The notes: generated by a model not told the origin, from the letters alone. DNA of 64,000 nt from Candidatus Marinacidobacterium sp. (GCA_965204755.1 OZ242011.1:1490266-1554265), one strand, 5' to 3'. Positions 62,376 to 64,000 are shown, counted from the first letter of the stretch. A program made the numbers and translations.

Positions 62376-64000
62376 GTGGCCCACCTCGCCTTCAAGGGCC
62401 GGGTCTTCGTCGAGAACTTCCACCTCGGCGTCCCCTACCACGAACTCAAGGCAGTCGAGTCGAAGGGTCTGAGCAAGAAACCCAGTATCCACGACAACCT
62501 GATCATCGAGGGCGACAACCTCGCCGCCCTGAAGGCGCTGCTCCCGTTCTATCACGGCAAGGTCAAGTGCATCTACATCGACCCGCCGTACAACACCGGC
62601 AACGAGAACTGGGCCTACAACGACCGCGTGAACTCGCCGATGATGAAGGACTGGCTCGGCAAGACCGTGGACCGCGAGGACTTGACGCGTCACGACAAGT
62701 GGTGCTGCATGATGCTGCCGCGGCTCAAGTTGTTGCGGGAGTTGCTGCGCGAGGACGGCGTGATCTTCGTTTCTATCGACGACAACGAAGTCCATCATTT
62801 GCGATGTGTCATGGACGATGTATTCGGAGCCGACAACTTCATCGGCACTTTCGTCTGGGAAGGGACGGGTAAGAACGACGCCCACTTCGTGTCCGTCGGC
62901 CACGACTACATCCTGTGTTACGCCCAGCGACTCGAAAAACTCCGAACGAATCGCACTCGCTGGCGAGTCATCAAGGATGGCTCAGGTCGAGTCTTCGAGA
63001 TGGCTGCCGAGTTCGTGCGGAAGAGAAGCGACGACTTTGCTGCCGCCTCAAAAGATCTGAAGTCGTGGTTCGCATCGCTTCCAAAGAACGACCCGGTCCG
63101 TGCGCACCGGCACTACAACTGGATTGATGAAACCGGTGTCTATTTCGCCGGGGACATCTCTTGGCCAGGCGGCGGTGGGCCGACCTACCAGGTTCTTCAT
63201 CCCCGAACGAGACGACCGGTCAAGGTGCCGGCTCGAGGATGGGTGTTTCCGAACGAAGAGCGGATGAACAAAGCTCTCGCCGAGGCCCGCGTCCACTTCG
63301 GCCTCGATGAGACGCGTGTACCCAATCTCAAGCGGTATCTCCATGAAACAGACCACCAAGTCCTCACAAGTGTCTTCTATCAGGACCGTCGTGCGGCGCA
63401 CAAGGATTTGGTTCGACTGCTTCCCGATGCCCCGTTGCAGTACCCCAAGGATATCCGAGTACTCCGGCGCTTGTTCGAAGCGGTTACGGCCGACAAGGAC
63501 ATCATCTTGGATTCCTTCGCCGGGTCCGGTGCGACTGCCCACGCCGTCCTGTCCCTGAACGCGCAGGACAATGGTAGACGGCGTTTCGTCTTGGTGGAAT
63601 GCGAGAGTTATGTCGACACAATGACTGCCGAGCGTGTGCGACGCGTCATCAAGGATGTGTCCAAGGTCAAAGACGAGCACTCGAAAACCCCTGCCGGGGG
63701 GGGGGGGGGGGGGGGGGGGGGGGGGGGGGCACCTTCAGTTATTTCCGACTCGGGAAGCCCATGCGGAAGGAGGCCATGCTCCATCCGTCGAAATTGCCGA
63801 CCTACGAGCGGCTCGCCGCGTATGTCTTCTTCACCGCCACAGGTGAGGAATTCGACCCCGCCGCAATGCGCCCAAAGCGCTGGTTCATCGGCAAAAGTCA
63901 AACCCAGGATGTCTTCCTGATCTACACGGACGACTTCGAGAAACTCAAGGATCTCGCGCTCACGCGGGATATCGCCCGGCGGCTGTCCCGCGGAAAGCGG
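62376..64000 (+). CDS. mod: Type III restriction-modification Mod subunit (N6-adenine MTase), split by frameshift at poly-G; 3' end beyond window
   Basis: Beta-class order with a long middle TRD: motif IV CIYIDPPYNTGNE (~aa 65), motif I ILDSFAGSGATAHAV (~aa 400). After the G34 tract the conserved C-terminus (F-S-YFRLGKPMRKEAMLHPSKLPTYERLAAYVFFTATGEEF…) continues in frame 2 to the window end. GC is ~57%. Confidence 0.8.
63696..63729 (+). repeat. Homopolymeric G34 tract inside the Type III mod gene
   Basis: Counted directly, from g at 63696 through g at 63729. It is translated as poly-Gly in the upstream frame; the downstream conserved domain is in a different frame (needs +1 or −2 nt). Confidence 0.9.

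Follow-up and report, generated by a model that had tools for sequence, protein, structure and literature searches.

A long poly-G tract at a domain junction of a Type III mod gene in Candidatus Marinacidobacterium, a candidate for phase-variable restriction

The stretch of DNA analysed here, referred to as the window, comprises 64,000 nucleotides from Candidatus Marinacidobacterium sp. (GCA_965204755.1, OZ242011.1:1490266-1554265), and at its 3' end lies most of a mod gene of the Type III restriction-modification family. The 5' part of this gene (62376..63695, + strand; from the ORF list and a PF01555 match) starts with GTG and encodes an N-terminal domain, motif IV, a target-recognition domain (TRD) and motifs X and I-III. 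Its first residues, MAHLAFKG, are the same in two homologues, P0001 and P0056. Motif IV, D-P-P-Y (gac ccg ccg tac, 62580..62591, +), is invariant in the alignments, and the AdoMet-binding motif I, F-A-G-S-G (63516..63530, +), aligns with DSFAGSG in all homologues. The 5' part runs into a homopolymer of 34 G that spans exactly 63696..63729 (+) and, when read, gives poly-Gly in place of a conserved G-L-G-G. In the assembled frame (ORF 62376..63920) the tract is translated as 11 Gly, followed by 58 unrelated residues (63730..63920, +) and a TGA at 63918..63920, for a total of 514 aa. The frame that begins at 63728 (GGC ACC TTC AGT ...) encodes GTFSYFRLGKPMRKEAMLHPSKLPTYERLAAYVFF..., which is the frame matched by homologue C-termini, and it is open up to the window end. 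This 3' part of mod (63728..64000, +), the start of the C-terminal domain, is identical or nearly so to the C-termini of P0056 and of the protein encoded on L001, a metagenome scaffold described below. It runs off the window, and past that point we expect about 40 more mod codons and an overlapping res start.

The two frames are joined by a tract of G35 or G32, that is, by +1 or -2 nt. Full-length Mod therefore requires tract lengths of 3n+2, and the assembled length of 34 gives the 514-aa product with its foreign tail. The initial annotation had reported a G34 run that breaks a Type III mod frame and a conserved C-terminus restored by +1 or -2 nt; every detail of that description, and the frame arithmetic, proved correct.

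A run of this length has a chance expectation of about 6e-11 per 64 kb at G = 0.366. G runs in the window fall off geometrically, with 59 of length 5, 11 of length 6 and 2 of length 7, and the next is the run of 34. The only other run longer than 7 is a C16 at 26030..26045, and no run of at least 8 was seen beyond these two tract sites in the window and 238 kb of same-species loci. The islands that hold the two tract genes have a GC content of 59-63%, against 72% for the window. A promoter scan upstream of mod found nothing. Other features of the window include a one-piece tmRNA (36447..36823, -; 136 bits), a tRNA-Met(CAT) (20119..20195, +) and a tRNA-Leu(CAA) (21485..21572, -).

That the gene belongs to the Type III Mod family, as initially proposed, was borne out by profile and structure comparisons. 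PF01555 (N6_N4_Mtase) matches residues 63-410 of the restored protein with 93.3 bits (cut-off 26.7), and a family profile made from the restored protein and 14 homologues matches EcoP15I Mod (4zcf_A) with E = 2.5e-109, as well as two other solved Type III Mods, 6k0w and 7dsu. These three structures also rank first (E = 6e-32 to 2e-16) in a Foldseek search with an AlphaFold (AF2) model of Mod, which has a mean pLDDT of 70. The motif order is that of the beta class, with DPPY at aa 69-72, a variable insert, and FAGSG at aa 381-385, and the domain order is the one described for EcoP15I Mod (PMC4490356). By sequence and predicted fold, the gene is thus identified as a beta-class, EcoP15I-like Type III mod.

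Among the 120 closest homologue clusters, 94 carry G-L-G-G at the position of the tract under a strict pattern, and the remainder mostly carry near variants (GFGG, GVGG, GLDG), followed by x-F-S/T-Y. The window has P-A-(G)12 at this site, an insertion of about 10 residues; a run of at least 5 Gly is otherwise found in these clusters only in the near-identical P0001. In the AF2 model the tract region (residues 429-450) is a loop with pLDDT below 50, flanked by the final helix of the methylase core (413-428) and a strand at 455-462. Since residue 411 aligns with EcoP15I residue 471 in the profile alignment, the tract should fall roughly at the end of the EcoP15I methylase domain (aa 390-516) and before the C-terminal domain (CTD; aa 539-644), the mapping beyond residue 471 being an extrapolation. 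All methylase motifs lie 5' of the tract, and it is only the C-terminal domain that the out-of-frame product lacks. In EcoP15I, ModA touches Res extensively through its CTD, and the N-terminal and methylase domains mediate Mod dimerisation (PMC4490356).

The window stops within mod and shows no res. The initial annotation had asked whether a cognate res follows, and syntenic loci of the same species indicate that it does. On L001 mod is followed by a ResIII gene of 843 aa, whose start shares an ATGA with the restored mod stop (11730..11733). The same 843-aa res follows other mod alleles on L002/L003 and L095, where the called genes overlap by 4 nt. These Res proteins group in one 90%-identity cluster with P0299, whose listed contig agrees in length (3,975,858 bp) and source (NCBI/ENA) with that of the window's own proteins. 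P0299 is full length and carries PTGGGKT, DEGH and a C-terminal D...VVETKG nuclease-type motif. A cognate and apparently intact res is therefore present in the source genome, and synteny suggests that it adjoins mod.

Comparison with L001 also allowed us to look at selection on mod. The 5' part differs from that of L001 by 19.5 synonymous and 5.5 non-synonymous changes (dN/dS 0.08). For the 273 nt after the tract, dN/dS is 0.15-0.23 in the restored frame, a value that rests on 7-9 substitutions, whereas the assembled frame gives 2.2, with 1 synonymous change and 6 non-synonymous ones. For res, the window lineage and L001 give a dN/dS of 0.09. Apart from the tract itself, there is no stop or indel in the 1.3 kb upstream of it, and the restored frame is open downstream of it for 273 nt in the window and 390 nt in L001. 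The substitution pattern and the absence of any other stop or indel therefore indicate that the restored frame is the one seen by selection and that mod is not an old pseudogene.

The mod locus, which lies between D-serine-dehydratase-like and phosphatase genes, is variable within the species, and four states were seen. Cassette A, the only one with the tract, is found in the window, in L001 and, disrupted, in L004, where mod is cut by a DDE transposase gene (DDE_Tnp_1_4, 11243..12706) 79 nt upstream of the tract site and where the tract, the 3' end of mod and res are absent. Cassette B (L002/L003, 10473..11233) is intact and has the same ends but another TRD, with GLGG and no tract. Cassette C (L095, ~3345..5004) has GFGG and no tract, and it carries a 1-nt insertion, GCCGC[C]GG, near codon 115. 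Most contigs (L085-L092) instead hold a 434-aa Mod-like gene (L085 8341..9645, -; equivalent positions in L086-L092) that is 45% identical to the Mod N-terminus, without DPPY, FxGxG, a TRD or a res. The length of this gene is kept across at least 8 contigs, and it may be an exapted inactive Mod. We considered whether it arose as a deletion fusion of mod and res and rejected this, since its product is a diverged Mod-like protein that lacks the catalytic motifs and does not resemble Res.

At least three alternative central cassettes are thus found between conserved 5' and 3' ends. Blastn identity to L002/L003 ends at 62848 and resumes at 63724, in or just after the tract, and L095 behaves alike; the tract therefore forms the 3' edge of an exchangeable, allele-variable cassette (62848..63723, +) that encodes the TRD and motifs I-III and whose counterparts in L002/L003 and L095 are unrelated in sequence. 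The conserved, presumed Res-binding end of Mod begins at this edge.

Other modification genes near the locus vary as well. A second N6_N4 methylase gene lies upstream of mod (window ~58232..59152, -), in a region (57833..59377) that is replaced by another version in L001, L004, L088 and L090-L094 (385 vs 306 aa, plus an ORF of 230-258 aa). Some strains carry, a few kb away, another Type III-like pair of a methylase (652-676 aa) and a ResIII protein (936-937 aa), together with DUF6883 and DUF2779 genes (L002 18782..21629, L085 449..5583, L095 11783..12532). No repeat of at least 8 nt was seen in the parts of this pair covered by sequence.

The second tract, C16, frameshifts a gene at 25816..27725 (+), which needs +1 or -2 nt to give a restored product of 636 aa. 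Searches of Pfam, PDB sequences and NCBIfam gave no useful match for it, and PADLOC gave only a weak candidate match, PDC-M33A. The model of the product (pLDDT 81) resembles Hsp90/TRAP1/HtpG, which fits its Bergerat-type motifs, and identifies it as a predicted Hsp90-like (GHKL) ATPase. The gene heads a low-GC island that extends to ~31250 and also encodes a 171-aa ORF, a DUF6339 protein, a C5 DNA methylase and Vsr. The initial annotation had placed this second homopolymer in another restriction-modification gene; the tract does exist, in a defence-type gene, but the gene is not a recognised restriction-modification gene. In the same species, the long-read contig L096 carries C25 (5934..5958) at this site. 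Among homologues 49-77% identical, poly-proline is present at the same loop either in frame (P0124, P0128, P0131) or out of frame (P0126, P0139), and most homologues are without a tract. Comparatively, this is good evidence that the C tract is a conserved contingency tract. Together, the two tracts suggest that the same device is used more than once in this genome.

Long poly-G is a known artefact of two-colour chemistry, and long repeats are mis-sized in short-read assemblies (Atack et al., 2018; PMC5909438). The initial annotation had cautioned that G34 might be a mis-assembly or a read artefact. On such a reading, dark cycles or a mis-join would hide a short, fixed Gly linker. The tract is internal, though, with collinear halves of one gene on each side and no conserved residue missing. 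Moreover, P0001, a protein 98% identical to that of the window, is encoded on L001 (labelled PANK22-1_SAMN12291259), an independent metagenome assembly that is ~97% identical to the window at the DNA level over 9.5 kb. L001 has a G25 tract (11318..11342) at the same codon as the G34 of the window, and the 5' flank differs, with CCCCC in place of CCCCTGCC, so that ...AAAACCCCC in L001 replaces ...AAAACCCCTGCC in the window. Tract length thus differs between strains at both sites, and the poly-C tract of the same genome behaves likewise in a long-read assembly. We rejected a poly-G read artefact on the strength of the independent G25 and regard a hidden short linker as highly improbable. The tract is real, and the doubt that is left concerns its exact length alone: all of these are consensus assemblies, and no platform sizes a homopolymer of 25-34 nt reliably to +/-1, which keeps the ON/OFF state from being read off the assembly.

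Two assemblies with a tract-bearing mod turned up in the databases searched, with G34 and G25, both in the same out-of-frame phase; a search of 5.8 billion protein clusters yielded no in-frame (ON) allele of the tract-bearing mod. When JGI metagenome contigs were scanned for the DNA pattern of the 3' flank, either alone or together with G8, nothing matched, and a scan of GTDB genomes returned only distant Mod relatives (at most 56% identity), none with a tract at the site. One Dehalococcoidia MAG has a G9 run (L025 6121..6129) in a distantly related mod (38% identical), close to the 5' end of the gene; this is the only other run of at least 9 inside a mod match among 80 GTDB loci.

G34 is a mononucleotide repeat of at least 9 nt within an ORF and thus counts as a simple sequence repeat of the kind surveyed in mod genes, where switching at G9 tracts occurs at about 1e-3 per division (Atack et al., 2018; PMC5909438). 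We consider it probable that the tract is a hypermutable repeat in the mod gene of an otherwise intact Type III system and that slippage makes restriction phase variable; on this view, the switch that the initial annotation read into the tract is largely right. Replication slippage would shift the number of G, and only lengths of 3n+2 (e.g. 35 or 32) would yield a Mod of about 585 aa in which a 12-Gly loop takes the place of the G-L-G-G of its relatives, with the mod stop overlapping the res start (ATGA). At OFF lengths, including the assembled 34, the 514-aa protein would keep the N-terminal, methylase and target-recognition domains and lose the C-terminal domain, which in EcoP15I binds Res; translation would also end about 200 nt before res, and coupling would be lost. 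A population would then be a mix of restricting and non-restricting cells, which may hedge between phage defence and the cost of restriction or the uptake of foreign DNA. Slippage itself, its reversibility, the exact tract length in cells, the loss of Res binding and the ecological role are steps that we infer. What counts against a switch is that no in-frame allele came up among the protein clusters and that the locus is lost or broken in other strains, by the insertion sequence in L004, the 1-nt insertion in L095 and the 434-aa gene of L085-L092.

These same losses could mean that the system is decaying in this lineage and that the frame merely broke at the tract. Both tract-bearing alleles are out of frame, one relative has lost res along with part of mod and another has a frameshift of its own, and most strains have only the degenerate Mod-like gene. 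Against decay, the frame is otherwise unbroken upstream and remains open downstream in both tract-bearing assemblies, dN/dS is 0.08 and ~0.2 in the restored frame, and neither in the source genome nor on L001 has Res lost length or motifs. A run of 25-34 nt does not arise by a single mutation and would often revert, and we think a decaying pseudogene unlikely. The phase of the tracts raises a different point. All four observations (G34, G25, C16 and C25, in two genes and three assemblies) are in the same phase and need the same -1 shift, and the lengths differ in steps of three (by 12 when the flank is counted, and by 9). Chance (about 1/27) could explain this, as could a common under-call of one base or a phase that is maintained and read through by slippage. 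Homopolymers are slippery sites for RNA polymerase and tRNA, and full-length Mod and ATPase could be made at a low level from a maintained 3n+1 tract by RNA-polymerase slippage or -1 ribosomal frameshifting, the tract serving as a dimmer rather than a binary switch. Such recoding is quite unlikely, in our judgement: there are only four observations, the members of each pair are related, an under-call would give the same pattern, and the diverged C-tract homologues occur both in and out of frame, as in ordinary phase variation. Efficient slippage is, in addition, documented mainly at A/T runs. We likewise doubt, if slightly less strongly, that 3n+1 is the maintained state of mod, with a CTD-less Mod that may still dimerise and methylate as the main product and slippage (-1, of DNA, RNA polymerase or ribosome) adding a small, adjustable share of full-length Mod and, by way of the ATGA overlap, of Res. 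If it were, the tract at the junction of the methylase domain and CTD would free modification from restriction: methylation of the genome would persist while restriction came and went, and the risk of self-restriction on switching restriction back on would be removed.

Another possibility is a phasevarion in the strict sense, a methylation-controlled regulon, for which the initial annotation had named the tract a candidate switch. Switching would then serve chiefly to control genes epigenetically, as ModA and ModH do, rather than to defend the cell. The conserved mod ends with at least three alternative central cassettes at one locus resemble those of modA and modH, and those phase-variable Type III mods that have been studied act on regulons (PMC5909438). 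Here, however, Res is intact, conserved (dN/dS 0.09) and translationally coupled, and the tract comes after all methylase motifs, at the junction to the Res-binding domain. A strict phasevarion accordingly appears rather unlikely to us. With res intact and coupled, the evidence points to restriction as what is switched, and we take defence to be the likelier role.

Phase-variable restriction at this locus would have both precedents and unusual features. ModA, ModB and ModD of Haemophilus influenzae and Neisseria are alike in their ON/OFF switching by repeats and in the conserved ends around a TRD cassette, but those genes are switched by tetranucleotide repeats, whereas the repeat in the window is a homopolymer late in the gene, with res intact and overlapping mod. 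EcoP15I (4zcf) shares the Mod family, the fold and the logic of the mod-res operon, and the CTD by which its Mod contacts Res corresponds to the part that is cut off here out of frame; to our knowledge, its mod gene neither contains a repeat tract nor varies in phase. Several homopolymer genes per genome, with lengths that vary between strains, are also known from the poly-G/C contingency loci of C. jejuni and Neisseria. Those hosts are small-genome, host-adapted pathogens, unlike the ~4-Mb, high-GC host of the window, in which the two homopolymer genes are both of defence type and the tract lengths are likewise unlike between strains. Closest are modH, modJ and modL of H. pylori and modU of C. 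upsaliensis, which have a poly-G tract within the mod ORF, a length-dependent frame and several TRD alleles (PMC5909438). In comparison with these, the tract described here is 25-34 nt long against the survey's 9-nt criterion, it follows all catalytic motifs at the methylase/CTD junction and replaces GLGG, and its host is uncultured with 72% GC.

The initial annotation had called the find notable in an environmental-type, high-GC genome. The novelty of such a host is weak, since 662 of the 3805 Type III mod genes in the survey (17.4%) contain repeats, among them genes of environmental species and genes with G[n] tracts such as modH, modJ, modL and modU (PMC5909438). What is unusual here is the length of the tract, its position at the junction to the Res-binding domain and the second tract in another defence island. 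If the preferred reading is right, homopolymer switching of restriction systems would extend to an uncultured, high-GC bacterium of ~4 Mb, which would use the device twice, in two different defence-type islands and with tracts far above the 9-nt criterion. The host is probably an acidobacterial member of a sponge microbiome, its closest relatives coming from metagenome assemblies that presumably derive from sponges, and such microbiomes are under high phage pressure; a search of the literature on phase variation in sponge symbionts found nothing specific. Annotation pipelines call working defence genes of this kind pseudogenes or fragments, and a consensus assembly cannot give their state.

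Finally, directly after the tract the restored frame contains two in-frame ATGs, at 63761 and 63776 (site 63761..63778). The second is preceded by AAGGAGG (63767..63773) at a spacing of only 2 nt, an arrangement from which the C-terminal domain might be translated on its own. The residues encoded there, MRKEAM, are also conserved as coding sequence.
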